Below are positions 1-13,300 of a stretch of DNA of 34,585 nt, in pieces. The stretch lies in IMG/VR virus record IMGVR_UViG_3300032286_000363, positions 1-34,585 of that record. One strand, written 5' to 3'. A model generated the notes under the pieces. That model did no database searches. It had not been told where the DNA came from and saw only the letters and a program-made list of their open reading frames with translations. A program made the position numbers and the translations under genes. Every line of letters begins with the position of its first letter. Within the stretch, counting starts at the first letter, position 1. This DNA comes from a virus (lineage: Duplodnaviria > Heunggongvirae > Uroviricota > Caudoviricetes).

Positions 1-135
1 AGCAACGATTGATTCAGTTAATCCAGTAATTGCTGCATCTTTTGCAGAAATTAAGATAGCAATTTGTTCTTGCTCAGCATCAAGAGCAGCTTGTAATTCA
101 TCTACTTTCATAGAGATTTCTTCTAATGTAGCCAT
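1..135 (-). CDS. Coiled-coil hypothetical protein, 3' end truncated by the window edge (not in ORF track)
   Basis: Hand translation from ATG at 135: MATLEEISMKVDELQAALDAEQEQIAILISAKDAAITGLTESIVA..., open to position 1. A-rich upstream region AAAAACAAATAAAC-ATG. Confidence 0.75.
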   Translation of the reverse strand, partial: MATLEEISMKVDELQAALDAEQEQIAILISAKDAAITGLTESIVA

Positions 136-154
136 GTTTATTTGTTTTTAGAGG

Positions 155-352
155 TTAAACGGTTGAATTAATATCATCTATAGATTCTTCTAACTTATCA
201 TATATTTCTTGCTTGAGCTTTGTGTTCTCAGCAAGAATCATATCAAGTTTTTTTTCTATCTGCCTAAGTCTTTTCTTAGTGTCATTATCTATAGAGTCAT
301 TTTCTATATTGTCATTATCTTTAACGTTGATAATAAAGGTAAATAGTCTCAT
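155..352 (-). CDS. Hypothetical protein, acidic with a short coiled coil
   Basis: 65-aa ORF that fills the gap between neighbours on the coding strand. Heptad-like KRLRQIEKKLDMILAENTKLKQEI. Confidence 0.6.
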   Translation of the reverse strand: MRLFTFIINVKDNDNIENDSIDNDTKKRLRQIEKKLDMILAENTKLKQEIYDKLEESIDDINSTV

Positions 353-358
353 ATTAAT

Positions 359-538
359 TTATTTTGATAATCTTTTTTGCATCATTGGTTGCATAGGTGA
401 TGTTCGTATTGCTTTGTCATCCATAGATTTATTCTTGGAAAAAGGTTTATCCTTCTTAGGAATACCAACCTTTGGAGCTTTTCTTGGAGCTCCTGATTTC
501 TTAGCTTTACCAGCTGTCATAGATTTACTTGCAGCCAT
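359..538 (-). CDS. Small Lys-rich basic protein (59 aa)
   Basis: The track ORF is 359..565. The likely start is MAASKSMTAGKAKK at 538, which overlaps the upstream stop by only a few codons. Strongly basic. Confidence 0.65.
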   Translation of the reverse strand: MAASKSMTAGKAKKSGAPRKAPKVGIPKKDKPFSKNKSMDDKAIRTSPMQPMMQKRLSK

Positions 539-752
539 ATTTACATTTTTTAGCCATCTTACCACCAGATTTCATCATAGGTTTCATAGAAGCAGCTTCA
601 CCACCATAGTTCATTTTCTTCTTTACTTTCGTTCCTTTCTTAGCTGTCTTAGGAAGAACACCTCTTCCAATTAACACATCTTTGAAAGTGGTTTTACCAT
701 CTTTATTAAGATCAAAAGAACCACCTTTTTTTGCTTTTTTTACAGTTGCCAT
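525..752 (-). CDS. Small Lys-rich basic protein with an EF-hand-like loop
   Basis: 75 aa, very K-rich. Contains DLNKDGKTTFKD followed by VLIGRGV, repeated xGG motifs, and a C-terminal KKCKYGCK. Confidence 0.75.
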   Translation of the reverse strand: MATVKKAKKGGSFDLNKDGKTTFKDVLIGRGVLPKTAKKGTKVKKKMNYGGEAASMKPMMKSGGKMAKKCKYGCK

Positions 753-755
753 TAT

Positions 756-887
756 TTACTTTTTTAAAGTGTCAACAATTTTGATTGAATCAGAGATTTT
801 AGTTGAATCAGTAGAAACAACTTCTGTAGAAGCACCACCACCACATGCTGATAACGCTACAGCTAATACGAATAACAATTTTTTCAT
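756..887 (-). CDS. Small lipoprotein (43 aa; not in ORF track)
   Basis: Hand translation MKKLLFVLAVALSA-CGGGASTEVVSTDSTKISDSIKIVDTLKK*. Has the basic n-region, hydrophobic h-region and LSAC lipobox of a signal peptidase II substrate. Confidence 0.85.
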   Translation of the reverse strand: MKKLLFVLAVALSACGGGASTEVVSTDSTKISDSIKIVDTLKK

Positions 888-907
888 TTTTATATTTTAG
901 ATTTTAT

Positions 908-1126
908 TTACAAACTTAATAACAAAACAAGTAGTCCACCAGCCATAGTCCATATGAAATCCCACCAGTCTGGTGTTCCTTTTTTAGAATAATAATCATA
1001 TGCTTCTTTACCTGCACCAATAACTATAACTGGAATCATAGACAACCAATTATTCAATACAATATTAGATAATATGTATATAATCAAACCAGCAGTAAAG
1101 TGATAAACCTTATCTATATGTTTCAT
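908..1126 (-). CDS. Small membrane protein, VanZ/YfiM-like
   Basis: DKVYHF...GAGKEAYD...G..DWWDFIWT.AGG pattern with 2-3 hydrophobic segments. Confidence 0.6.
   Translation of the reverse strand: MKHIDKVYHFTAGLIIYILSNIVLNNWLSMIPVIVIGAGKEAYDYYSKKGTPDWWDFIWTMAGGLLVLLLSL
911..918 (-). promoter_or_regulatory. Bacteroidota-type -7 promoter element upstream of the lipoprotein gene
   Basis: TAAGTTTG on the minus strand matches TAnnTTTG and lies 24 nt before the ATG at 887. No clear -33 TTG at the expected spacing. Confidence 0.4.
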
Positions 1127-1138
1127 AAATTGTATTTC

Positions 1139-1450
1139 TTAATTGATGTAAGTTGAAGCCCAAATCAGATTTACAACAGCAGATACAAAGAACATCATCC
1201 ACACTTGGTTAATTACAGGTTGTTTAGGATTGATATTTAAGTCCCCGAAATGTTTTGGATGAGTTGTATAGTTTGAAAAGCCATACGTTATCCCACTACC
1301 TATAAAAGCAGACAATAAACCTATAAATCCAAACCACCATTGGTGTGTATCAGGAATAAATAATGGAAAAGGCATTCCAATCATAAAAAACATTCCTATT
1401 AACCACTTTAATTGTTTCATATTATATTTTATTTTATTTAGCATTTCCAT
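1139..1450 (-). CDS. Hypothetical membrane protein (about 3 TM segments)
   Basis: Three hydrophobic stretches. The true start may be the downstream MKQLKW at 1420. Confidence 0.65.
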   Translation of the reverse strand: MEMLNKIKYNMKQLKWLIGMFFMIGMPFPLFIPDTHQWWFGFIGLLSAFIGSGITYGFSNYTTHPKHFGDLNINPKQPVINQVWMMFFVSAVVNLIWASTYIN

Positions 1451-1794
1451 TTTTTTCTTGCTAATCTTAATCTACTATTTGGATCTTTTGCTGCTTTAGG
1501 AAACTTTTTCATTTGCCCTGCAGATCTAGCACAGAATGATTTTTTTCTAGGGCCACCTTCTGGTTGTGGAGCTTTAAGATGTGATCCAGGATTAGCAGCA
1601 TTGTATGAAGCTCTACCTTTAGCATTTAATCCACCTGAAGGATTCTTTCCTTCTTTTCTTTGCCAAGCTGGACTGCTACCACCATTCTTTAAAGAAGATC
1701 CTTTAAATGGACCTTTCTTCTTAATAAGAGGACCATTAGATACAGGTGTAATACCGCCTTTTTTATTTACTATTGCTCTTCCCATTTCTTCCAA
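1438..1794 (-). CDS. Basic phage protein, DUF6321-like
   Basis: AWQRKEGKNPSGGLNAKGRASYN...RKKSFCARS...DPNSRL...KKWKC is a pattern recalled from aquatic phage DUF6321 proteins. The start may be MGRAIV at 1785. Confidence 0.75.
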   Translation of the reverse strand: MEEMGRAIVNKKGGITPVSNGPLIKKKGPFKGSSLKNGGSSPAWQRKEGKNPSGGLNAKGRASYNAANPGSHLKAPQPEGGPRKKSFCARSAGQMKKFPKAAKDPNSRLRLARKKWKC

Positions 1795-1972
1795 ATGTTA
1801 TATTGTTCTTAACTATAATGTCCTTGTGACAATATTGCCACATTTCTCCTGTAGAATCAATAATCACTGTATAAATTGTATCAGTTTCATGACCGTAGTC
1901 TGTAACTAACCAAATGATACCATCACCTTTAGGTGTACTAACTTCCACTCTATTGTGAGGTTCGTATATCAT
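1763..1972 (-). CDS. Conserved hypothetical phage protein (TPKG...DYG.E...TGE.W...NITFGR)
   Basis: 69-aa beta-rich ORF. The motif pattern is recalled from freshwater phage proteins; function unknown. Confidence 0.65.
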   Translation of the reverse strand: MIYEPHNRVEVSTPKGDGIIWLVTDYGHETDTIYTVIIDSTGEMWQYCHKDIIVKNNITFGRNGKSNSK

Positions 1973-1973
1973 A

Positions 1974-2972
1974 CTATAATGTATTTCTAAAATCAGTTGT
2001 AAGATCTGTCCAAGTTCCTGAGTTTCTCAACCATAATTCATTAAAGTTTATAGATGGTGCATATCCATCATCTACATTAATAAATGTTCCAGATAGGAAA
2101 TAAAGATCTTTTTGTCCTGTAAGAACAGGAATCAATGTATTCTTTAAATCTGTAAAACTTGCCACTCTTATATATTCTGTAGCTAATTTAACACCAGCAC
2201 TGTATTTAGTGGGGTCTAAAACAAAGTTATAAGGAGCAGAACAAAGTGTAGCTCTATTTGTATATAGAATACTAGCAAGTGTATAGTATTGATCATTATC
2301 AGCAAATACACCAGCACCTCTAGTTGGAGCAGAACCACCAGAACCATTTGTCATAACCCAGTTAGCAGCTGTAACAACAGCACCACAGGTATTATCACTT
2401 GTAGCAGAAGTCTTTCCTCTTCTTAACATTCTACCTACATTATCATTAGCAGTAACAAGATCAGCTTGTTGTGTAACTCCTATGTGAGGCATGTTAATTA
2501 ACAATAATGGTCCATCAGTAGGAGTCATTGTTGTAGCATGACTTTGCCAAGCTTGTAATGCTAGAGCTCCTGTATGAGGATAACCAGCTAATCCACCACC
2601 CATAAATGGTCCAAGATAGGAATTTAATGCTGGAGGATTTTGTCCTATGTTATTAATATCAGCAAACTCAGAAGCATTAACATCATCTGAACACACTGTA
2701 AGATTTAAAACTGTATCACTGGTTTTCACACCTCTATCAGAAAGGAATAATTGTAATCTTGTAGCAAGATGTTGAGCTAATACAGCATCTGGATAGGTTG
2801 TTTGTACAACATCAAGATAGTGCTGAGTAGTCTTATTAAAATATTCTATAGGTTGAACCTCTTTCCATATACCCACCTTAGGAGCATGAGTGTATAAACC
2901 AAGACTTCCTGGTACTATTTCTCCATTTCTTAGAAACCTTGCATAAGGTTTTAACTTTATACTTTTTGTCAT
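1974..2972 (-). CDS. LCIB/LCIC-family (theta-class) carbonic anhydrase with an N-terminal phage module
   Basis: Collinear LCIB-family motifs: YPDA...; C94-S-D96; PFMGGGLAGYP.TG..A...H; PH163IG; VGRMLRRG; TC196GA; C-terminal SGTFIN. The Cys/His/Cys Zn triad is at 2691-2693, 2484-2486 and 2385-2387. Confidence 0.85.
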   Translation of the reverse strand: MTKSIKLKPYARFLRNGEIVPGSLGLYTHAPKVGIWKEVQPIEYFNKTTQHYLDVVQTTYPDAVLAQHLATRLQLFLSDRGVKTSDTVLNLTVCSDDVNASEFADINNIGQNPPALNSYLGPFMGGGLAGYPHTGALALQAWQSHATTMTPTDGPLLLINMPHIGVTQQADLVTANDNVGRMLRRGKTSATSDNTCGAVVTAANWVMTNGSGGSAPTRGAGVFADNDQYYTLASILYTNRATLCSAPYNFVLDPTKYSAGVKLATEYIRVASFTDLKNTLIPVLTGQKDLYFLSGTFINVDDGYAPSINFNELWLRNSGTWTDLTTDFRNTL

Positions 2973-3130
2973 TATTTTCCTTTTCTAGCTTTGGCCATTT
3001 TCTTAAGAGTGTGAGCTAATGCTTTCCTTTTCGGTGTACAAGTGGGCTTACTTTCAGGTGTGCAAAAACCCTTATGTTTAGGATTGATTGCCTTCTGTAT
3101 CCACTTTTTATCCTTCTTAGCTGTAGCCAT
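2972..3130 (-). CDS. Small basic protein (52 aa; not in ORF track)
   Basis: Hand translation MATAKKDKKWIQKAINPKHKGFCTPESKPTCTPKRKALAHTLKKMAKARKGK*. Its stop overlaps the carbonic anhydrase ATG (TAATG). Confidence 0.85.
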   Translation of the reverse strand: MATAKKDKKWIQKAINPKHKGFCTPESKPTCTPKRKALAHTLKKMAKARKGK

Positions 3131-3132
3131 AA

Positions 3133-3486
3133 CTATTTCTTTTTAGACATTTTACCACCCATTTTTTTCTGAGGAAGACCTGGACTAGTTCCATAAGCTT
3201 TTTTAGAAAACTTAGTTTCTTTTTCTCTAGCTTCAGCAGCTTTTTTTCTAAGGCCACTTGCTTTACTAGTTCCCATTGCATTCACTGCCTTTGCACTATA
3301 ATCATCAAACTGCTTACCGTAGATTGCAACACTATCCTTATAATTAGGAGACTTTGTGCTTTCACTAGTAGTTGTACCAAGTTTAGCCTTTGTTACCTTC
3401 CCACCTGCTTTCATCATTGGAGCAGCTTTCTTAGCTGATTTTTTAACCATAGACTTTTTAGCCATGGGTTTTTTCATCATTGCCAT
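3133..3486 (-). CDS. Lys/Met/Ala-rich basic protein (histone-H1-like composition)
   Basis: 117 aa. MAMMKKPMAKKSMVKKSAKKAAPMMKAGGKV at the N-terminus and KKMGGKMSKKK at the C-terminus. Confidence 0.75.
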   Translation of the reverse strand: MAMMKKPMAKKSMVKKSAKKAAPMMKAGGKVTKAKLGTTTSESTKSPNYKDSVAIYGKQFDDYSAKAVNAMGTSKASGLRKKAAEAREKETKFSKKAYGTSPGLPQKKMGGKMSKKK

Positions 3487-3492
3487 TGTAAA

Positions 3493-3639
3493 TTATTTAG
3501 ATTTTGATTTAATCTTTTTCTCCTGTTGAAGCATTTGTTTAGTGGGCTTCTTACCACTTCCTTTATTCGCACGGAGGTTGTCCCACAACCCTCGTTGTGA
3601 GACAGAACCATCCTTACGTTTAATCATTTGCTTAGGCAT
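3493..3639 (-). CDS. Small basic protein (48 aa; not in ORF track)
   Basis: Hand translation MPKQMIKRKDGSVSQRGLWDNLRANKGSGKKPTKQMLQQEKKIKSKSK*. The GLWDN.RA...PT pattern is recalled from phage basic peptides. Confidence 0.8.
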   Translation of the reverse strand: MPKQMIKRKDGSVSQRGLWDNLRANKGSGKKPTKQMLQQEKKIKSKSK

Positions 3640-3803
3640 TAGCTAACTTTCTTTACATCTTGAGCAGAAAATCCTAAGAAGAACAATCCTACAGCTTGTA
3701 TGATTTGTCCAACAAGGTTTAACACTCCTATTTGAGTGTTTACTAAAAATGTTCCAGCAGCAGCTAAAAGGCCACCGATTGTTGTTTTCCAACTTTGATT
3801 CAT
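3639..3803 (-). CDS. Small two-TM membrane protein, holin-like (54 aa; not in ORF track)
   Basis: Hand translation MNQSWKTTIGGLLAAAGTFLVNTQIGVLNLVGQIIQAVGLFFLGFSAQDVKKVS*. SWKTT.G start, two hydrophobic helices and a charged tail. TAATG-coupled to the next gene. Confidence 0.75.
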   Translation of the reverse strand: MNQSWKTTIGGLLAAAGTFLVNTQIGVLNLVGQIIQAVGLFFLGFSAQDVKKVS

Positions 3804-3832
3804 AACTTGAAGTTTAATTGTTACAGAATAAA

Positions 3833-4069
3833 TTATTCACTAACTTCTTCAGGAGCTTCTTTAACAACACCATTTTCAACAGCCTTAGCTAATGTAGCTT
3901 CAACAATTGTGTTAGCTTGGTTTGCTAATAAGATTTTACTTGCTTCAGGTGTGCTAAGAATAGCTCTTAAAGTGTTTAAAATTACACCAAATTCTCCTCC
4001 AGATAGAGTGAAAGAATCTTCAGGTGTCCATGAGTACTTTTTGTTTGGATCGTAGGTGATCTTTTCCAT
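3833..4069 (-). CDS. Hypothetical protein
   Basis: 78-aa ORF downstream of a predicted promoter, with the A-rich initiation region AAACCAAAATAAATCAAC-ATG. Confidence 0.7.
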   Translation of the reverse strand: MEKITYDPNKKYSWTPEDSFTLSGGEFGVILNTLRAILSTPEASKILLANQANTIVEATLAKAVENGVVKEAPEEVSE

Positions 4070-4093
4070 GTTGATTTATTTTGGTTTAAAAAA

Positions 4094-4125
4094 CGAAGAT
4101 ATGTATTTGATTTGTAATTTCCAAA
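4094..4125 (-). promoter_or_regulatory. Bacteroidota sigma70-type promoter
   Basis: TTTG-N20-TATCTTCG, one mismatch to TAnnTTTG, in the intergenic gap 4070-4126. Confidence 0.65.
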
Positions 4126-4126
4126 T

Positions 4127-4411
4127 TTAATTTAGCTCTATGTCAAAAGTTATTGTTGCAGAAGTTTTAATACTCTTGCTCATATTTAATTTGATTTGGA
4201 ACATGTTGTGAAACTTTAACAACTCCTCTAATAGAAGATTGTTATATTTAGGAACAGATGTTGCTATTCTAAAATGATATGATTCTGGACCTCTGGTTAT
4301 TTCCATTGAACAAAGCTCATCTATGGAATCAATAAGTCCTTCTAAATGTGAGAAGTATGCAAGCTCATTGTCTGGCATAATCTCAGGAAAAAACTTCTTA
4401 TTTATTTGCAT
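4127..4411 (-). CDS. Hypothetical protein
   Basis: 94-aa ORF, TAATG-coupled to the upstream Dps-like gene. Confidence 0.7.
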   Translation of the reverse strand: MQINKKFFPEIMPDNELAYFSHLEGLIDSIDELCSMEITRGPESYHFRIATSVPKYNNLLLEELLKFHNMFQIKLNMSKSIKTSATITFDIELN

Positions 4412-4833
4412 TAAGACAGGGTTAACAAATACAATGTTTTAGCTGCTTCTCCAGATAGAGATTGTGCAATGTTTTCAATGTCACACATGTTATTAGCTTC
4501 TCCATACTCTTCCAACTCTTTAGCAAACATCTTAAGATCGTTCACCACAGATTTTGTTATTCCTATAGAGTAGTCTCTTAACATTTCGTGCTTCATTGCT
4601 TTAGGACGAGTTCCAGAATAGCCCATTATTTTTTCTACAATCTCATCCTTCAAGTCAAACACCTTATCATATAGTCCACCAAGAGCTTGGTGTTCTGCAT
4701 AACTAGTTGTTTGCCAATGTAATAGATGTAATTGGTCTACAAAATGTGTAAGCTTAGCAGCTATGCTGTCTAAGTTTAGAGAGCTTCCTCCCACACCTTC
4801 CATCATTCCTTCTGGGAATATTGATAATGCCAT
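4411..4833 (-). CDS. Dps-like ferritin-fold protein (DUF5856-like)
   Basis: LHLLHWQTTSYAEHQALGGLYDKVFDLKDEIVEKIMG reproduces the Dps H-W...H...D...E ferroxidase-centre spacing. Predicted all-helical, 140 aa. Confidence 0.75.
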   Translation of the reverse strand: MALSIFPEGMMEGVGGSSLNLDSIAAKLTHFVDQLHLLHWQTTSYAEHQALGGLYDKVFDLKDEIVEKIMGYSGTRPKAMKHEMLRDYSIGITKSVVNDLKMFAKELEEYGEANNMCDIENIAQSLSGEAAKTLYLLTLS

Positions 4834-4843
4834 AAAGTTTGGT

Positions 4844-5581
4844 TTATATAGATACAGTCATCGTTAATGCTTGTTGTCCAGAGCAAATAGCTTGCTTCTG
4901 AAGATCTGTCATCACTAAAGTTAAATTTGTACCACCTGTTGTAGAGAAAACTCCAAGAACAGGATATGTAGTATTTAATCTAGTAACAAGGTCTGCAACA
5001 GTAGTAGACGATTGTGAAGAAGCAAGAGTTAAAACTAATGAATTAGATTGTTTAATTGAAACTATTACAGTACCATTGAACGCTGTAAGAGGTGTGATTA
5101 CTAAGTTTCCTACTCCTGTAGCTAATACATTAAGGGTTGTAGTTGCAGCTATTGCTGATGTAGTTACACCACCAAATGCTACACTAATACTTCCAGCAGA
5201 TGCACCAGTGATTGTAATACTAATTGTATATCGTTTACCTACTACAGCAGCTAATGAATTAGATAAAGCAGCTGTTCCTGTTGCATGAGCATATCCTGCA
5301 GCAAATGAACCAGACCATCCTGTACCAGCAGTCCAACCAGTGCTAGAAAGTAATTCACTTCCTATAGAACCACCACAATACATTCTCACTTTAAAGTTAG
5401 TGATTGCTGTAGCTACAGTTGTAGTTAATGTGTGATCTGTACAACATTCATATCCTTGTACTTCTGTCCATTTACCAACTTTAGGTTTTTGTCTTCTCAA
5501 GATCAATGATCCTGCAACAACTCTTCCGCTACCATCATAGCGAACAAAGGCTCTTAAGTCTTTCTTATTGTTTCCATTCAT
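4844..5581 (-). CDS. Putative virion structural/decoration protein with a beta-sandwich (CBM-like) domain
   Basis: N-terminal module shared with the carbonic anhydrase. The Thr/Gly/Ala-rich central region GWTAGTGWS...VVGKRYTISITI...GSISV...LVITP..FNGTV.VSIK has a galactose-binding/CBM-like strand pattern. Confidence 0.6.
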   Translation of the reverse strand: MNGNNKKDLRAFVRYDGSGRVVAGSLILRRQKPKVGKWTEVQGYECCTDHTLTTTVATAITNFKVRMYCGGSIGSELLSSTGWTAGTGWSGSFAAGYAHATGTAALSNSLAAVVGKRYTISITITGASAGSISVAFGGVTTSAIAATTTLNVLATGVGNLVITPLTAFNGTVIVSIKQSNSLVLTLASSQSSTTVADLVTRLNTTYPVLGVFSTTGGTNLTLVMTDLQKQAICSGQQALTMTVSI

Positions 5582-5593
5582 AACTAATTGTTT

Positions 5594-6622
5594 TTAGGGG
5601 TTATAGGTTAAATTATATTTATTTTTTAATTCAATAAGTTGTATAACATAATGATGTGTACAATACTTTGCACTTTCTTCACTATTTAAAACAATGTTTA
5701 AATGAGAATCGTTAAAAGGATTTTTACCAGTGTGATATTTTCCTTTATAGAAAGCTGGATAACCTTTCATATAGTCTCCCACTATTCCTGCATTATGTAA
5801 AATTGTACATCTACTTAATTTCTCAATAGGATCTGAGCTCCAAGCAAATTCCATTTCTGGAACATTCTTTGTTTCTAAGTCTCTCTTCCAAAGGTTCCAA
5901 AGAACAGCCCACATATCAGCGCACCAACTTTGAAATCCTGTATCCTCATCCTTAAAAAACTCCTTATTTACATTTTGTAAATACACTCTTAAATAAAGAC
6001 AATGATTTTTAACATCTTCCCAAAAAGAAGCATCTATATTCTTAAGGAAGTATTGTGCACCTCCTGAATGTAGATTGTTCTTTTCACATGTTGCTCTATC
6101 TATTCCTACAAGACTAGTTGCATTACCAAGGATGTCATGTTTTTTATATTCCTCTAGTTTATTTGGAAGAACATCCTTAATCTTACTATCAAAATATGAA
6201 GCGTTTACATAACTATTTGTATCAGATAGATAGCAAACATCGTCATCTATAAACTTAGAAACATCAAACTTCTCTGTAAAAACAATGTCTGAATCACAAT
6301 AGAACACAGCATTATTTTTCATATCTGGATTGTCTTTAAAATATCTTTGAAGACAATAAGGTCTAAGAACAGGTATGTAAACACCAATTTTATCACTTAT
6401 ATCATTCTCTTCATCTTTGTAGAAAACAAATTCTGCTTCTGGATAGAGGTTTACAACCTTTTCCCATCTTGCAGATGCTTTGTCTCTAAAGGAAGGAGTG
6501 AACACAAGAACAATAGCCTTGTCTGACATTCCTATTTTCCTAAGACTCTCAATCCATAAATGCACTTGCCAAACATAATAATTATCATCAGGCTGGCATA
6601 CTACGAACTTTAGTTCCTTCAT
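5594..6622 (-). CDS. GT-A glycosyltransferase, resembling the peptidyl-serine galactosyltransferase / Hyp O-arabinosyltransferase family
   Basis: N-terminal C..D.YY.WQ..L..ES motif, a DxD-type FYCDSDIVF motif, WCADMWA.LW, and a C-terminal ILHNAG. Confidence 0.65.
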   Translation of the reverse strand: MKELKFVVCQPDDNYYVWQVHLWIESLRKIGMSDKAIVLVFTPSFRDKASARWEKVVNLYPEAEFVFYKDEENDISDKIGVYIPVLRPYCLQRYFKDNPDMKNNAVFYCDSDIVFTEKFDVSKFIDDDVCYLSDTNSYVNASYFDSKIKDVLPNKLEEYKKHDILGNATSLVGIDRATCEKNNLHSGGAQYFLKNIDASFWEDVKNHCLYLRVYLQNVNKEFFKDEDTGFQSWCADMWAVLWNLWKRDLETKNVPEMEFAWSSDPIEKLSRCTILHNAGIVGDYMKGYPAFYKGKYHTGKNPFNDSHLNIVLNSEESAKYCTHHYVIQLIELKNKYNLTYNP

Positions 6623-6638
6623 ATATGTAGTTTTGGTT

Positions 6639-7907
6639 TTAATCTGTTATGACTGTCCAATTTCTAGTTATCAATATACCTTTATCAATCAACCCTTGAC
6701 CTGTTGGAGGTGCTAGTGGTATTTGACTATTGATCAATAACCTACCTCTATTGTTTCCATTAGCCACTAACTGATTTAAAAGTTTATTCACTTGTGTAGA
6801 TGATAGTTTGTTTCCATAAAGTATTACAGTATTAAGATTCAATCTACTATAATCAACTTCTAATATTTGAAAATTACCATGATCACTAGTGCTATCAACA
6901 TATCCTATAACTGTTGGATCTTTCATATAAACTTTTACATCAAAGATATCATTAGAAGTAAATGTATGACTAATAATTTGAGGATGATTTGAAATATAAT
7001 ATTGTAAATTACTACCATCTCCCCAATCAATAAACATTTCAGTGTTTAATTGTACTATTCCATCATATTGTGCACCATCTGGACTACCAGCATTCCCTGC
7101 ACTATTATCTACTTTAAATGTAAACCCTAAAACGTATGAAAAATCTATAGATCCCTGTACACCTATAAATGGGTTAATTGGATCATAAACTCCTGTAACA
7201 TTTGTTATTGTATATCCACTTGCTGATTGATCTGTTATTTGAGCAGACAATGTATTTCCTTTGAATATTAATAATTTAGTCTTAGCTAATACTGTTAAAG
7301 GTGCTGTTGGTGGAGTGAAATTTAAACTAGGGATGCTATATAAATGCTCACTTGTCCATCTAAAATTAGTAATCTTGCCTTTAATTGCATTACCATTTCC
7401 TCTAGATCCTAAATATAATGGTAGACCATTTGTTGGAATAGTACCAGAGTAAAATCCATTTGCTATCGCTATACCATTTTGAAAAATCCCTATTTCATTT
7501 CTACGTCTAGTTACAGTGAAATAAGACCATGTTCCTATGTAGTTTTGTGGTAATGTAGCTGATAAAACTATACTTCCACCAATCCAATAATTCATTACTC
7601 CACCTTCTATACTAACAGCATGTGCTCCAGCAGAACCCACACTCCAAGCTCTAGGATTATTATTGTTAGAATCTATATTAGCCCACCATTCTATTGTATA
7701 ATCACTATCTGCAACAATCCCTTCTTGATATTCAGGAATGTCAAAGTTTGGACTGTTATCAATCATTAATGTAACGTTAGGAATGATAGGAACAAGAGGA
7801 CCTAAAACAACTTTAGATGTTACACTAATCAATCTTTCAAGTTGTTGAGAGATTTGATAGTATAAATTAGCCTCAGGGCCCCATCCTATTTGTTTTGATA
7901 TTCCCAT
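6639..7907 (-). CDS. Virion-associated protein with LamG/concanavalin-like, PKD-like and LRR-like domains
   Basis: DYTIEWW...WSYFTVTR....IFQNG...LYLG...G.ITNFR (LamG); FIDWGDGS...SHTF (PKD-like); L..V.LYGNKL...VNKLL..L (LRR-like cap). Confidence 0.7.
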   Translation of the reverse strand: MGISKQIGWGPEANLYYQISQQLERLISVTSKVVLGPLVPIIPNVTLMIDNSPNFDIPEYQEGIVADSDYTIEWWANIDSNNNNPRAWSVGSAGAHAVSIEGGVMNYWIGGSIVLSATLPQNYIGTWSYFTVTRRRNEIGIFQNGIAIANGFYSGTIPTNGLPLYLGSRGNGNAIKGKITNFRWTSEHLYSIPSLNFTPPTAPLTVLAKTKLLIFKGNTLSAQITDQSASGYTITNVTGVYDPINPFIGVQGSIDFSYVLGFTFKVDNSAGNAGSPDGAQYDGIVQLNTEMFIDWGDGSNLQYYISNHPQIISHTFTSNDIFDVKVYMKDPTVIGYVDSTSDHGNFQILEVDYSRLNLNTVILYGNKLSSTQVNKLLNQLVANGNNRGRLLINSQIPLAPPTGQGLIDKGILITRNWTVITD

Positions 7908-8035
7908 TATGGTATTGTAGTGGTGGTTGTTGTTAATGCTGCTGTCACCTTGATCAATCTATCTAATTGCATAGATATTTGATAAAGAAGATTTGCTTCA
8001 ACACTTTGTCCTATTTGTCTATTTGGTACTCCCAT
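7907..8035 (-). CDS. 42-aa peptide paralogous to the N-terminus of the downstream LamG protein (not in ORF track)
   Basis: Hand translation MGVPNRQIGQSVEANLLYQISMQLDRLIKVTAALTTTTTTIP*. 18/25 identity to LamG-protein residues QIG...ISVT. TAATG overlap with that gene. Confidence 0.85.
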   Translation of the reverse strand: MGVPNRQIGQSVEANLLYQISMQLDRLIKVTAALTTTTTTIP

Positions 8036-8053
8036 TTTATTAATTTTATTTTA

Positions 8054-8083
8054 CAAAAGTAAACACTTTATTATAATTAACAA
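8054..8083 (-). promoter_or_regulatory. Bacteroidota sigma70-type promoter
   Basis: TTG-N19-TACTTTTG in the intergenic region 8036-8115, 19 nt upstream of the ATG at 8035. Confidence 0.65.
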
Positions 8084-8115
8084 TGTAATTGAAAAAATTA
8101 CAATAATGTAATTAG

Positions 8116-8532
8116 TTAAATCTTTGCCAACTGGAAGTGCATACCATCAGGTTTAGACCATGTACCACCCCAATAAAAACCATTGTCTGTAAAACATTTT
8201 ACAAATCCTGCAGACAATACTGGTTTACAACCAAAACAGTTCCAAGCTGCATTGAGATCTACAGCTATTCCCCAGCTATGTAAAGACATACTAGCTTGTC
8301 CTCTTTTCTTTCTAATATTAAAACAACCATCCCATGTCTTAAGTTCTTTAACATGATCTGTTGTTATAAGAGCTTGGAAAGCTGCAGCTAAAGGAACAAT
8401 AAGATCTTTGTTACAATATATCTTCTTAGGAATAACACCTATCTCTAAATATCCTGGAACATCCCACATAATCATAGCTGATTGATTGTTGGGATCTCCG
8501 TATTTCTTTAGTGCTTGTGCTGATGTAACCAT
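8116..8532 (-). CDS. Endolysin, M15-family peptidase (L-Ala-D-Glu peptidase type)
   Basis: FNIRKKRG...SLHSWGIAVDLN...WGGTWSKPDGMHFQL gives the SxHxxxxAxD and HxQ zinc motifs. Confidence 0.9.
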   Translation of the reverse strand: MVTSAQALKKYGDPNNQSAMIMWDVPGYLEIGVIPKKIYCNKDLIVPLAAAFQALITTDHVKELKTWDGCFNIRKKRGQASMSLHSWGIAVDLNAAWNCFGCKPVLSAGFVKCFTDNGFYWGGTWSKPDGMHFQLAKI

Positions 8533-9170
8533 TATTTATTCTTTTTTAACAATGTATAATAGGAAACTCCGTATGTCAATCTTCCACCTTCCCAGAAAAC
8601 ATTTCCTCCATACATCCTATTGTGAAGATCTTTATATAAGATTCCTCCGCTTACACCAAAAGATGTTGGAGATAGGAGTCTTAATGAAGGACCAATGTAA
8701 AACTCTCTTTTGTTCACTACAACATTATTATTTACAAATGCTGTCTTTTCAGGAATCTTTATATTCTTTACAAACTCTCTTCCTGTAAGTGTGTTCTTTT
8801 GAACAGTGTCTATAATTTTCACCCAACCAAGACTGTCTAAATAAATTGAATCCTTATATATATTCCTGGATAGAAGTTCTTGTTTAAGGCTTTGAAACTG
8901 TTCTAACAGTTCAGAATATCCTTCTTGAGGATAGTATTCTACAGAACTTTCAAGTAGTGTATCTCTTATCCTCTGTATAAGTATAGGGAACGTTCTAGTT
9001 GTATCTTTATAATATACATAATGTACATATGTAATTGTATCTGATTTAACACCTCCACCACCAGCATTCTGACGTTTACATGTTTCATATAATATCATTA
9101 TCAACAATACTATTATAAGAATGTATATTATATTATTTTTATTACGCACGTTTGATATTGTAATAAACAT
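8532..9170 (-). CDS. Membrane-anchored envelope protein, spanin-like
   Basis: Lies between the holin-like gene and the endolysin. N-terminal hydrophobic segment followed by a Cys (YETC), a central helix, and C-terminal alternating aromatic beta-strands. Confidence 0.5.
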   Translation of the reverse strand: MFITISNVRNKNNIIYILIIVLLIMILYETCKRQNAGGGGVKSDTITYVHYVYYKDTTRTFPILIQRIRDTLLESSVEYYPQEGYSELLEQFQSLKQELLSRNIYKDSIYLDSLGWVKIIDTVQKNTLTGREFVKNIKIPEKTAFVNNNVVVNKREFYIGPSLRLLSPTSFGVSGGILYKDLHNRMYGGNVFWEGGRLTYGVSYYTLLKKNK

Positions 9171-9459
9171 TTACAAAATATTGTAATATTAAAGCTACCC
9201 CTACCACTATGCCAATAGTCCAATAAACTCTATTCTTGAAGTTTTCATATTGCAATTGACTCTTCTCTAAAATCTCAATCTTTTGTTTCATAATCTCAAT
9301 ATCCTGCATGAGTCCTCCAATTTTTGTAAGAGGGTTGCCAAGGATAGCATCTACCACTTGTGTAAGCTTTGTATCAATTACATCAATTTTACTCTCCATA
9401 TCGGTTAGTCTGTCCTCCATTTGTTCAAGTTGGGATGTGAAGTTTGTATTCGTTTCCAT
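9142..9459 (-). CDS. Holin-like protein (coiled coil plus C-terminal TM; XhlA-like architecture)
   Basis: Heptad-rich N-terminus and a single TM segment VYWTIGIVVGVALILQYFV. First gene of the lysis cassette. Confidence 0.55.
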   Translation of the reverse strand: METNTNFTSQLEQMEDRLTDMESKIDVIDTKLTQVVDAILGNPLTKIGGLMQDIEIMKQKIEILEKSQLQYENFKNRVYWTIGIVVGVALILQYFVNVYYNIKRA

Positions 9460-9469
9460 AGAAAAGTTT

Positions 9470-9507
9470 AAAAAAAAATATTCCCATGCTCAAGAGAGAG
9501 GGAATAT
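9470..9507 (-). terminator. Intrinsic terminator-like hairpin directly upstream of the holin-like gene
   Basis: Minus strand ATATTCCC-TCTCTCTTGAGCAT-GGGAATAT, an 8-bp perfect inverted repeat (9478-9485 / 9500-9507), running into a 9-T tract (9470-9478). Confidence 0.65.
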
Positions 9508-9521
9508 GTAGTTTAGGTTTA

Positions 9522-9553
9522 CAAAAATATATGATTGTATTGAGATTACCAAA
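9522..9553 (-). promoter_or_regulatory. Bacteroidota sigma70-type promoter for the lysis cassette
   Basis: Perfect TTTG-N20-TATTTTTG in the intergenic gap 9460-9559. Confidence 0.75.
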
Positions 9554-9559
9554 TTTATT

Positions 9560-9892
9560 TTACTCATCTTCTTCTATAGCCTTGAGAGAGTGGTTTCTAT
9601 CTAGGAGCTCCAAAACACAATCTAAAACAATACCTAATTTAGTTAATGTATTTACCAATTTGTTTTTCCCAATAACACTACTAATGGTTTCATCCTCATT
9701 TCCAAACTTATAAATACTGTAATGTTTTATTAAAGTTGAATTGAATAATCTAGCACATATAACATTTCCTAATTGGTCTATTGCTCTAGCTATATTATAA
9801 AAATACTTTCTTCTTCCTGGATAGAACATTGCAAATACAAATCCTATTGGGAAAAGAATAATTGATATTATCGTAGCAACTATAAGAATCAT
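9560..9892 (-). CDS. Conserved hypothetical phage membrane protein
   Basis: N-terminal TM segment and the IDQLGN...GNEDETISS..GK motif pattern recalled from phage proteins. Confidence 0.7.
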   Translation of the reverse strand: MILIVATIISIILFPIGFVFAMFYPGRRKYFYNIARAIDQLGNVICARLFNSTLIKHYSIYKFGNEDETISSVIGKNKLVNTLTKLGIVLDCVLELLDRNHSLKAIEEDE

Positions 9893-10323
9893 AACAAGTC
9901 TATAAAAGTTTTTCCCTGTGTTATTGCATTATCTCTAGCAGCTGTATTCAATTCTTTAGCATATGTTATACCTCTAGCTATTAGTTGCCAATATGCATTA
10001 TCAGGTATATTACCTTCTTCATCTGGACCTATACCATCTGTAATTTCTTGTATTACACCTGCTGTTATCTGTGGAGTAAGAAGATCATCCATTTCAACAT
10101 TTAGTCTATTAGCTTGACCTTCAGGTAACACTGTTAGTGTTTTGAACATATCAACAACTTCCACTACACTAGCATTTACATCAAAAGAAGCATCTAAATC
10201 ATTATTCCCATTTAATGCTGTTTTCAATCTATTGATTAATGAAAAATATTGTTGAACTGAACTATTTCTTAGATAGTGAACTATGTAATAATAATGTTTT
10301 GCTTTTAATCTAATTTGTACCAT
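9889..10323 (-). CDS. Hypothetical protein (possibly tail-associated)
   Basis: 144-aa ORF right after the tail fibre gene, with an ATGA overlap to the next gene. Confidence 0.7.
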   Translation of the reverse strand: MVQIRLKAKHYYYIVHYLRNSSVQQYFSLINRLKTALNGNNDLDASFDVNASVVEVVDMFKTLTVLPEGQANRLNVEMDDLLTPQITAGVIQEITDGIGPDEEGNIPDNAYWQLIARGITYAKELNTAARDNAITQGKTFIDLL

Positions 10324-10336
10324 GTTTTATATTTTA

Positions 10337-13300
10337 TTATTCAATGTAAATTGTTCCTCCAAATACATTATTTCCTGGAGTTACTGTATTAACAGATACT
10401 ACCTTTATTTCAAAATAATCTCCTTCTGTAACATTTATTGATAATGCATTGTTATTATAAGTCCTAAAAAGGGCTGATGCTGTTGATGTTGCAACTAATG
10501 TATCAGTTGTATTATTCAGTCTTATACTAACAGTAATTGAAGTTATTGTACCTGTTGTAGCTGAATAGTGTCCAATGTAAGCTTTTGTTATTGTGCCTGT
10601 TTTTGGAATATACACTCTTGACACATCAGGAACAATAACTGGTGATCTACCAACATTTCCAAAATAATAAGTTGTTCCATTATTTAAATTACCTACTGAT
10701 GCTACTAATGCTAATGTATATCCTTTACTATCTAATTGCGTTTGTACAGCACTTGTAGCACCCTTTACATAACTTAACTCAGTTAATGATGGATATGTAG
10801 CTGTACTAAGACTTGCTATTGTACTTCCTGTTGAATTAAAATAAGCTATCTGATTATTTGTACCTGTTCCTGTTACAGGGTTAGTTAATGTAGCTTGCTT
10901 CCCATTTAGTTGTGATTGTATACCACTTGTAACACCTGAAACATATCCAAGTTCTGTATCAGTGGTAGCACTTACAGCCACCTTACCACTTACATTACTA
11001 ATTAATGCTCTTGATGCTGTAAGATCAGCTGATGTTATTGTTGTAGCAGCTCCTGTTATAGTGGCTTGTTTTGTTCCTATTTGAGTTTGTATAGAGGATG
11101 TAACTCCTTTTACATATGCCAATTCACCTGGTGATGGATATGTTGCAGTGGGTAATCCTGTAACACTTTGGTCTGCATTTACACATAATATTAATTGACT
11201 ACCACTACTATTAGGTATTTTTATATTTGATGTAAATGTTTTTTGTCCTGCGATAGTTTGTGCTCCTGTTGTAATTAAACCCCTTGCACTTGCACCAGCA
11301 TCAGGAAGATTAAACGTATGTGTTGTTCCTGAGGAAACAATAGTAAAGTCTGTACCACTTGTTCCTGTTACCAATGTTTGTGCTGCTCCTGTAAGACTAT
11401 TAATAGCAGTGATACCTGTACCAGCCATTATTCCACTTTGTTGTGTTACTGTTAAAATTGCAGATGGTATTGCTGGATGTGGAGCTGCAGCAGCTGAAGC
11501 TACTATTTCAACATTTGTATTACTTGTTGACCACATTAATTGCACATAATCATTTTGTACTAAATCTAAAACATAGTTCCAAGCTGCTACAACTGGAGAA
11601 GCGTTTGCACTTCCTGTTAATACAACCTTTCCTGTAGTTGATGGAATATCAACACCATTTTTTCTAATCCAAATGTCTGCAATCATATTTCCACTACCAC
11701 CTGTTTTCTCAAGTTGTAATGAAAACTGTATATTGTAAATTCCAGTATTTGCTAATGTTACTCTTGTTGGATTGCTACTACCATCATTAACTACACTAAC
11801 ACCATTTGTTAAATCTGTTGTATTTAATTTTACAGCATAAGCAGTATTAATAGATGCAGCAGTTTGTGTTGTAGTATCTTGAAATGCACCATAATATCCT
11901 GTAGCTGTAGGAGTGGCTGTACTATTAAGTGTGCCACCTGTAAGAGTGAGGCCTGAACCAACAGTAATTTCTTCCATAACACCTGTTCCTGCAGAACTTC
12001 TACCAATCAATTTATTGGTAGCCATTGATGTAGATATGGTTGGTGTATTTCCACCACTAGATGTAATAGGACTAGTTGCTCCTACTGATGTTACAGCAGA
12101 TGTTAAATAAGTGTTTGTATCTAAAGCAAATGTACCAGCAGCTGTCATCTTTACAAAAGATGTAGAAGCATACGTTAGTCCTGATAAAGATGTAAGATTT
12201 GTAGCAAGAGGTTGTCCTCCTAATCCACTCAATGTATATGTAGGAACGTTCAACACTCCTGAAATTAATGTACTTGCTCCACTATTTCCTGTAACAGTTA
12301 GAGATGAAAATGTAGCTGTTGGAGGTGTTGGTATATTTAGAACATTAGCAACCAATGTTGCTGCTCCTGAACCAGTGGTTGTAAGAGATGTAATTCTATT
12401 AGTGTAAGCAGAATCCCAATTTGTATTATTGTAACTAGCTGTTGTAGGTATTAAGTATCCTGATGTAAGACTAAATACACCTGTAGTATTTGTATATGTA
12501 AGTCCTGTAGCTGTTGAGCTAAGAGATGTAAGAGTTATACCACCAAGTCCTGCAAGTGTATATGTAGGAACATTTAGTACACCACTTATTAAAGTTGAAG
12601 CTCCTGATGAGCCTGTAGTGGTGAGAGATGTGAATGCTGCAGTTCCAGGAGTAGGTATATTTAATACATTTGCTATGAATGTAGCAGCTCCTGATCCTGT
12701 AGTAGTTAGTGTTATTGGATTTTGTTTACCGTTAAACGTAGTCCAATTTGCAGAAGATAGATAACCATCTTGAGATCCACTAGCTTGCTGAATAGTTATA
12801 TTAGGAGTGGTTCCTCCTGTAGAGGATAATGGAGAGCTTGCTGTTACAGCTGATACACCACTTGTTCCAGTAGCAGCAATTGTGAAATTAGGATAGGTTC
12901 CTGTAACCGATATACCTGTTCCATTATTTAACACAACTGTTTGATCAGGAGCTGTGTTAGTTATTGTTATGTTTGGTGTTGTTGTAGGATTTGATACAGA
13001 TGCTGATATCCCTGTTCCTGGTGTAACAGAAACACTTGTTACTGTTCCAATTCCTCCACTACCTATAGCCACTTGACTAATTGATGTAATAAGTCCCTTA
13101 CTATTCACATTTATAATAGGAATAGCTGTAGCACTTCCATAAACTCCAGGTGTAGAAAGCACATTTGCTAACGTTAAACTAATTGGAGATCCTGTGTTTC
13201 CATACCCATAAACATCTCCATTAATAACAACGCTACTTGAAGGAACAGCAATCACTGTTGTTGTTACCCCTGTAATAAGTCCTTTAGCATTCACTGTTAT

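Follow-up and report, generated by a model that had tools for sequence, protein, structure and literature searches.

Phage fibres and tailspikes such as T7 gp17 and the P22 tailspike are modular proteins with conserved N-terminal virion-attachment domains, and T4 Hoc and Soc are non-essential capsid decoration proteins that are used for display. The closest described counterparts of the element studied here are found in crAss001, where residues 1-38 of the trimeric head fibre gp21 lie in the planar hexon pocket, residues 1-58 of the dimeric head fibre gp29, a protein with an Ig-like sandwich, lie in the winged hexon pocket, and residues 1-26 of the tail fibre gp22 are docked in the tail hub (Bayfield et al. 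2023, PMC10172136). Disulfides stabilize the hubs of these fibres. Homologues of gp21 and gp29 are absent from most crassviruses, in which uncharacterized proteins may fill the same role (PMC10172136). The gp29 gene is located between the holin and endolysin genes. We have analysed a stretch of 34,585 nucleotides (referred to as the window) of the IMG/VR virus record IMGVR_UViG_3300032286_000363, a phage genome of 113,975 bp. Two genes of the window, one for an algal-type carbonic anhydrase-like protein of 332 amino acids (aa) and one for a protein of 245 aa, share a short N-terminal module, which is the subject of this work.

The module proteins are like the crAss001 fibres in that a short N-terminal segment is followed by a projecting domain, and in being encoded near lysis genes in a crAss-type genome. 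They differ from them in forming a large family with tandem module copies, a Cys-Cys pair, threonine (Thr) stalks and many kinds of C-terminal domains (heads), including an enzyme. Binding in hexon pockets, seen for gp21 and gp29, is putative for the module. With T7 gp17 and the P22 tailspike the module proteins have in common a constant N-terminus, an exchangeable C-terminal receptor-binding or enzymatic part and paralogues within one genome that are alike in the N-terminus only, and one member of the family has a C-terminal Peptidase_S74 chaperone domain. In contrast to those proteins, the constant part has about 40 residues and is sometimes in tandem, the proteins can be as short as 60-250 aa, and the heads are mostly of the lectin or leucine-rich repeat (LRR) type, not depolymerases; homology to those families was looked for by Pfam and PHROG scans. 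As in T4 Hoc and Soc, a constant part, putatively capsid-binding in the case of the module, is joined to a displayed part that would be held off the capsid. In Hoc, however, the capsid-binding part is C-terminal, and there is neither a natural family of swappable heads on one tag nor an enzyme head.

The two module genes and their parts are the following:

1974-2972, minus strand: gene (open reading frame, ORF) for the 332-aa protein, module plus LCIB/theta-type carbonic-anhydrase domain (Pfam PF18599)
1986-2825, minus strand: LCIB fold proper, residues 50-329 of the AlphaFold2 (AF2) model, in which the predicted local distance difference test score (pLDDT) of the whole protein is 82
2850-2954, minus strand: module copy 1, residues 7-41; the match to the 42-position profile extends to residue 48 (coordinate 2829), hmmsearch 74-84 bits
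4844-5581, minus strand: gene (ORF) for the 245-aa protein, module plus split alpha/beta domain with an insertion resembling a carbohydrate-binding module (CBM)
5042-5371, minus strand: the variable, CBM-like beta-sandwich insertion, residues 71-180
5441-5446, minus strand: vicinal Cys-Cys (C46, C47) directly after module copy 2, invariant in 119 homologues of the 245-aa protein
5453-5557, minus strand: module copy 2, residues 9-43; hmmsearch 82-88 bits

A module shared by two otherwise unrelated proteins

An earlier note on this DNA had described a gapless match of 35 residues, 16 of them identical, between the two proteins, and both the count and the coordinates proved to be correct. Both genes are on the minus strand: translation of the plus strand at these coordinates yields stops only, and the peptides, read from the minus strand, are residues 7-41 of the 332-aa protein (2954..2850) and residues 9-43 of the 245-aa protein (5557..5453). 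When both proteins were shuffled with their composition preserved (n=2000), the best 35-residue window had on average 10 and at most 13 identities, and 16 was reached in none of the 2000 trials. BLASTP aligned the two proteins with 20/47 identical residues (E 4e-8). The likeness extends past the 35 residues, to about 42-47, and no second significant BLASTP segment was found, in agreement with the earlier statement that the rest of the two proteins is unrelated. At the DNA level the copies have no more than 53% identity (56/105), and the likeness is therefore old and kept in the protein, and not the product of a recent duplication. Six-frame hmmsearch detected no third copy in the window or in the whole genome.

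In the AF2 models, copy 1 forms strands at residues 8-13, 25-27 and 35-38 with a pLDDT of about 90, followed by a less confident linker (residues 41-50), and copy 2 forms strands at residues 10-15, 27-29 and 38-41, again with a weaker linker after them. Three short strands are thus predicted in place of the beta-hairpin that had been proposed before. Since in both models a confident three-strand piece is followed by a low-confidence linker, the module is a discrete autonomous unit.

It could be argued that the similarity of a single pair with only 16/35 identities is due to chance, or that the shared residues are nothing more than the beginning of the LCIB fold. The outcome of the shuffles, the BLASTP E-value and a family profile that finds more than 1000 clusters (see below) speak against the former. 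As to the latter, the fold begins at residue about 50 and the PF18599 match at residue 65, and the solved LCIB chains align from their own residue 1-2 with residue ~50 of the query. Because the solved chains lack a counterpart of the module and the fold covers residues 50-329, the module lies outside the LCIB fold; the earlier suspicion that it might be part of that fold on cellular homologues too was checked and fails. Refuted by the shuffles, the family profile, the solved LCIB chains and the fold comparison, these two explanations carry practically no weight. The shared stretch is a domain of about 40-45 residues at the N-terminus, with three predicted strands, which had no name before and is nearly restricted to phages.

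The Pfam profile PF18599 (LCIB_C_CA) matched residues 65-228 of the 332-aa protein (E 1.9e-17; score 63.7 bits, cut-off 25), and it is present in all of the at least 120 homologues among the matches listed. By VIA-align, residues 50-329 gave a Z score of 25.8 with PtLCIB4 (5b5y_B; root-mean-square deviation 2.2, 234 residues aligned), 25.5 with 6kfs and 20.0 with CrLCIB (5k5w), the lowest value for the LCIB/LCIC structures, LCIC included, being 19.7, whereas ordinary beta-carbonic anhydrases scored only 10-12. Phmmer found 6kfs at E 1.5e-7 and 5b5y at E 3.4e-5. Residues C94, D96, H163, R184 and C196 are invariant across 113 phage homologues, and in the phmmer alignment to 6kfs and 5b5y C94/D96, H163 and C196 fall on the CSD, PH(I/V)G and CG motifs, respectively. 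The Cys, Asp, His and Cys residues were reportedly identified as zinc-site ligands of PtLCIB4 by Jin and co-workers in 2016. The zinc site of the 332-aa protein is apparently intact as judged from these residues, and profile, modelled fold and site residues place the protein in the LCIB/LCIC family as a putative enzyme. With the solved cellular LCIB/LCIC proteins (5b5y, 6kfs, 5k5w) it shares the fold, the PF18599 domain and the Cys/Asp/His/Cys site, and it differs from them in being phage-encoded and in carrying the extra N-terminal module. A literature search found no paper on phage LCIB homologues.

The 245-aa protein matched no Pfam or PHROG family, and a Foldseek search of the PDB with the whole model gave nothing at E<=1e-3. 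In its family (494 homologues were found) the N-terminal 70 and the C-terminal 60 residues are conserved around a variable insertion, C46, C47 and C69 are invariant, and C233 is nearly so. In the AF2 model (pLDDT 89) the module and a linker are followed by an alpha/beta domain into which a beta-sandwich is inserted; there are also homologues of 135-200 aa without the insertion. VIA-align paired the insertion with the C-terminal domain of Vip3A (Z 10.3), the CBM 8xmz (Z 9.6) and the CBM16 2zew (Z 9.5), and many CBM6/35/36 structures resemble it at Z 8-9. What the earlier note had called a putative structural protein is therefore better described as conserved N- and C-terminal parts with a variable CBM-like insertion, and this head is, on the evidence of the model, probably glycan-binding. 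Prediction of a homo-trimer (three copies of the 245-aa protein) scored 0.02 against a mark of 0.42, which is evidence neither for nor against a trimer.

The module family and its heads

A profile (A3) built from 25 diverse module copies was searched against 1.84 billion cluster representatives (clusters at 50% identity), and it matched 1043 clusters at E<=1e-3, of which 533 also passed E<=1e-10. Close homologues of both window proteins carry the module. Architectures were counted in 147 cluster representatives. The first module begins within residue 30 in all of them (147/147), two tandem modules are present in 57, Cys-Cys follows directly after the last module in 125, and a run of poly-Thr/Ser lies no more than 45 residues from the module in 77. 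These proteins are 68-860 aa long, and all ten of the longest module proteins are of the tandem form. The module is basic, with a mean net charge of about +3.

The heads recognized by Pfam (n=83 proteins) were Fib_succ_major (9), LCIB_C_CA (6), LRR_5 (4), DUF285 (3), Lcl_C (3), Ice_binding (2) and Laminin_G_3 (2), as well as PKD, Ig and PQQ-propeller. The catalogue of fused domains suggested in the earlier note has thus been made, and it consists of one constant tag with many different heads, all of which, other than LCIB, belong to surface-binding domain types. Peptidase_S74 is an intramolecular chaperone of phage fibres and spikes. In Pfam scans this domain (PF13884) was found in neither window protein and in one family member, P0327 (193 aa; residues 117-172, E 2.2e-8; score 34.7 bits, cut-off 22), where it marks the module family as fibre-associated. 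Module pieces and short family members matched no Pfam or PHROG family, and an Atlas feature search with the module gave no usable match. A single-linkage clustering of the heads was discarded, as it chained through low-complexity linkers. In many loci (L041, L047, L058, L065, L073 and others) there are ORFs of 55-90 aa consisting of the module only, some of them in overlapping frames; these are possibly true 'blank' anchors, or else genes that were disrupted at repeats of Thr codons.

Loci were scanned with the closer module set A4 (pattern scan). In IMG/VR 303 module loci were confirmed, and a set of 185,579 prokaryote species, each represented by one genome, yielded only 4 matches. Three of the four are on contigs shorter than 4 kb and the fourth is on a contig of 111,986 bp in a Sediminibacterium metagenome-assembled genome (JBBAJS010000010.1, L013), which has the size of a phage genome and contains two module genes. 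The module is nearly confined to phage DNA. Sediminibacterium is a possible host of this phage group, but this is a lead only.

As comparison of module sequences shows, the tag tracks the phage lineage and not the type of head. Within one LCIB subclade, modules are over about 40 residues 86-100% identical to those of non-LCIB proteins, namely the small proteins P0248 and P0253 and an ORF in L004. For the LCIB clade of the window the best non-LCIB match is 52-60%, and the two copies of the window itself are 46% identical. Some two dozen LCIB homologues of roughly 360 aa have no module and start with either of two other tags. One such homologue is encoded on a T4-like contig (L001, 159,730 bp) at 10001-11092, in the structural block, between the major capsid gene gp23 (with PhoH) and the neck gene gp13. 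The T4-type tag is common to 24 proteins (63-90% identity over about 30-45 residues), many of which hold runs of short Ser/Thr/Ala-rich repeats, presumably of the fibre type, and one of which is annotated by its source as a trimeric autotransporter adhesin. In the Atlas the best named cluster for this tag was the T4 gp9/10 N-terminal domain (score 0.90, a lead only), and tblastn against 50,697 deposited phage genomes gave no significant match to it. For a tag of the 'MSTLKTNNIEP' type there was one weak and insignificant match (E 0.07), to the tail fibre of a Synechococcus phage. Two unrelated phage lineages thus put LCIB on tags of their own, as would be expected if the tag had to fit a lineage-specific partner, and the observation that each lineage's tag also heads non-enzyme paralogues fits such a partner too.

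The module as a putative virion anchor

Taking together the architecture, the gene position, the kinds of heads, the restriction to phages and the analogy with crAss001, we favour, with moderate confidence, the interpretation that the module is a virion-docking anchor, which would work in the way of the N-terminal segments by which crAss001 head fibres bind the capsid. When gp21, gp29 and gp22 were searched with the module profile (hmmsearch), the best score was 1.9 bits. As there is no detectable homology to gp21 or gp29, the module is said to work like these segments and not to be a member of their family. It would serve as a constant handle for exchangeable C-terminal heads and would dock the proteins as small fibres or decorations on the virion of a freshwater crAss-like lineage, the docking site being on the head or the tail, where it would anchor small head or tail fibres. 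The Cys-Cys pair could staple chains to each other or attach them at the site of docking, while a spacer for the head could be provided by the poly-Thr stalk. In the phage studied here one handle would bear the CBM-like head and the other the LCIB/theta-type zinc carbonic anhydrase; since the LCIB protein carries the handle, the carbonic anhydrase would ride on the particle. A dimeric fibre would suit a dimer of the beta-carbonic anhydrase type, and tandem modules on monomeric solenoid heads would provide the same number of anchors, both of which are conjectures. We infer that the partner is a virion component, and what is said here about which component this is, about the oligomeric state and about the activity and purpose of the enzyme is of the same inferential kind.

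Several points weigh against this interpretation. The evidence for association of the module proteins with virions is indirect. No homology of the module to any known anchor was detected by Pfam, PHROG or HHalign against gp21; the HHalign comparison of A3 with six gp21 N-termini gave a probability of 1.4% (P 0.036) over 24 columns, although a kinship between segments as short as these may escape detection. Tblastn against the deposited phage genomes found no match for either window protein or for two tandem-module N-termini. The LCIB copy in this window has neither the Cys-Cys pair nor a Thr stalk, its intact active-site residues suit an ordinary intracellular enzyme equally well, and we know of no rationale for a carbonic anhydrase on a virion. 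Finally, the module genes follow the lysis genes amid small genes of unknown function, a region which could suit non-structural accessory genes too.

Some of the same observations can be accommodated if the module binds, or oligomerizes on, a target outside the virion, such as the host envelope or an extracellular polysaccharide. The module proteins would then be soluble lectin-like factors, which, released at lysis, would mask receptors on debris or bind to the matrix, and the carbonic anhydrase would be sent to the same surface. Tandem modules, as found in 57/147 representatives, are typical of avidity-type binding repeats, the net charge of about +3 and the failure to find anchor homology fit such a role, and the genes come after the lysis cassette and not among the head or tail genes. 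On the other hand, lectin and adhesin heads already supply target binding and the constant part is N-terminal, one member contains the fibre chaperone Peptidase_S74, and a tag that tracks the phage lineage, with T4-like phages using a fibre tag of their own, is better explained by a partner on the phage side. We regard a target outside the virion as unlikely, although it deserves some consideration.

If the module is indeed a virion anchor, the system might be a natural 'plug-and-display' device, in which an anchor of 40 residues, often a Cys-Cys staple and a stalk that is possibly O-glycosylated by the adjacent glycosyltransferase hold swappable heads, including an active carbonic anhydrase that would interconvert CO2 and bicarbonate on the surface, and to which T4-like phages would have converged with their own fibre tag. 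We advance this extended version tentatively and consider it possible but somewhat doubtful. The principle of an anchor with exchangeable heads is well known; the anchor family itself matches nothing in Pfam or PHROG. No description of an LCIB-type enzyme as a displayed head was found in the literature search. If virion docking is true, a large domain family (more than 1000 clusters at 50% identity) would explain the surface diversification of abundant lake phages, and the module would be a ready-made display handle. The supposed 'auxiliary metabolic gene' (AMG) would shift from the cytoplasm of the infected cell to the virion, and phage carbonic anhydrases, perhaps also other AMG calls beside structural genes, would need rereading.

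Genome and gene neighbourhood

The genome is crAss-like by its PHROG matches (TerL E 1.7e-89, portal E 1.1e-103, major head protein, 517 aa at genome 63363-64916, E 8.9e-33), and its portal is about 25% identical, over the full length, to Crassvirales portals. Every gene from TerL (at about 71 kb) down to the LCIB gene (at 2 kb) is on the minus strand. The order along this strand is head genes, tail and tail-fibre genes, ORFs of 1585, 1373, 854, 4441, 1947 and 1153 aa, holin-like and M15 endolysin genes, the gene of a LamG protein, a glycosyltransferase (GT)-like gene, the 245-aa module gene and the DUF5856 gene; small genes and then the LCIB gene, 2.6 kb from the first module slot, are at the end of the string. 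The two genes that border the first slot are:

4411-4833, minus strand: DUF5856 gene, downstream border of the module slot (Pfam PF19174, E 1.5e-14; synteny)
5594-6622, minus strand: candidate GT-A-like glycosyltransferase of 342 aa (phrog_4417, E 4.5e-55)

In about 80 related loci the order is conserved as GT-like gene, one to three module genes (60-864 aa), DUF5856, g94 and g78. In six loci an LCIB-module gene occupies a second slot between g52 and g118. In public assemblies, a contig of a relative has 448 other letters in place of 4773-5494, which is the body of the 245-aa gene, and retains the DUF5856 side and the module-coding end, and DNA contigs of relatives skip 1749-3848, that is the LCIB gene with four small neighbours. 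From these swapped and skipped stretches it follows that the first slot is a variable cassette with a constant tag, and that the LCIB gene is accessory.

In almost all of the about 80 loci the GT-like gene is the next gene upstream of the module slot. The structural neighbours of its 342-aa product in the Atlas include a galactosyltransferase (template-modelling score, TM, 0.86) and peptide O-glycosyltransferases, namely HPAT (TM 0.71) and an O-FucT/GlcNAc transferase (TM 0.70). As the gene stands beside genes with poly-Thr stalks, the enzyme may O-glycosylate these stalks. The module could then be a recognition handle for the upstream enzyme, marking the proteins that are to be O-glycosylated on their Thr-rich stalks, a role that would be compatible with virion docking and to which the poly-Thr/Ser linkers in 77/147 module proteins would be suited. 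That the LCIB protein of the window and many short members have no Thr run and that the LCIB gene is in a second slot 2.6 kb off make this role improbable, and action of the enzyme on proteins is itself a conjecture.

The T4 capsid-targeting sequence and the cargo proteins of crassviruses are parallels for yet another role, in which the module would be a packaging signal loading cargo into the capsid for ejection, and the carbonic anhydrase would act in the new host cell. In a cell, an intact enzyme would be of use, and the module genes are on a late strand in common with the 4441-aa and 1947-aa ORFs, which matched no family. Moreover, crAss-like phages are known to store and eject cargo proteins (PMC10172136). 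Lectin, LRR, PKD, Ig, CBM and ice-binding-like heads, Cys pairs, Thr stalks and a fibre chaperone domain are, however, typical of exposed proteins and not of those that have to be unfolded for passage through a tail channel, so that a packaging signal seems very improbable to us.

No PHROG or Pfam family was found, at the thresholds used, for the ORFs of 4441, 1947, 1153 and 313 aa (10337-34005, minus strand), the only signal there coming from the 1153-aa protein, in which 14 residues resemble BppL_N with a score under the Pfam cut-off. The coding strand has no terminator-like site in 1-10,400. A Bacteroidota-type promoter pattern had 4 matches in the window (2.4 expected), only one of which is intergenic, at 9522-9553 (minus strand) before the lysis cassette; with this pattern no promoter of their own was found in the window for the module genes. 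The ATG of the 332-aa gene overlaps, at 2972, the stop of a 52-aa ORF upstream. Several very basic, Lys-rich small ORFs (48-117 aa, starting with MAT.KK or similar; minus strand) occur at 2972-3639, in the interval from one module gene to the other, and at 359-752, further downstream than the LCIB gene.

The window stretch was present, at shares of 0.22-0.61, in runs of five further studies, all labelled freshwater metagenome. Positions 2324-2544, in the LCIB gene, are matched by a contig of a lake metatranscriptome (1 difference in 221), and positions 1990-2696 by a fish-gut metatranscriptome (identity about 90-96%), although such libraries may contain DNA.

Two further sets of proteins with shared N-termini are encoded in this genome, which is a point in favour of the anchor interpretation; the first of them is a second N-terminal tag family within the cassette of the module genes. 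A 42-aa ORF (7907-8035, minus strand), which ends in a Thr run, is identical in 19 of its first 30 residues to the 422-aa Laminin_G_3 (LamG) protein encoded at 6639-7907 on the same strand (E 3e-9). The adjacent tail-fibre-like proteins of 861 and 451 aa (genome 52266-56226; L008:266-4226, minus strand) are 44% identical over the first ~130 residues (E 2e-22) and have a C-terminal stretch in common as well.

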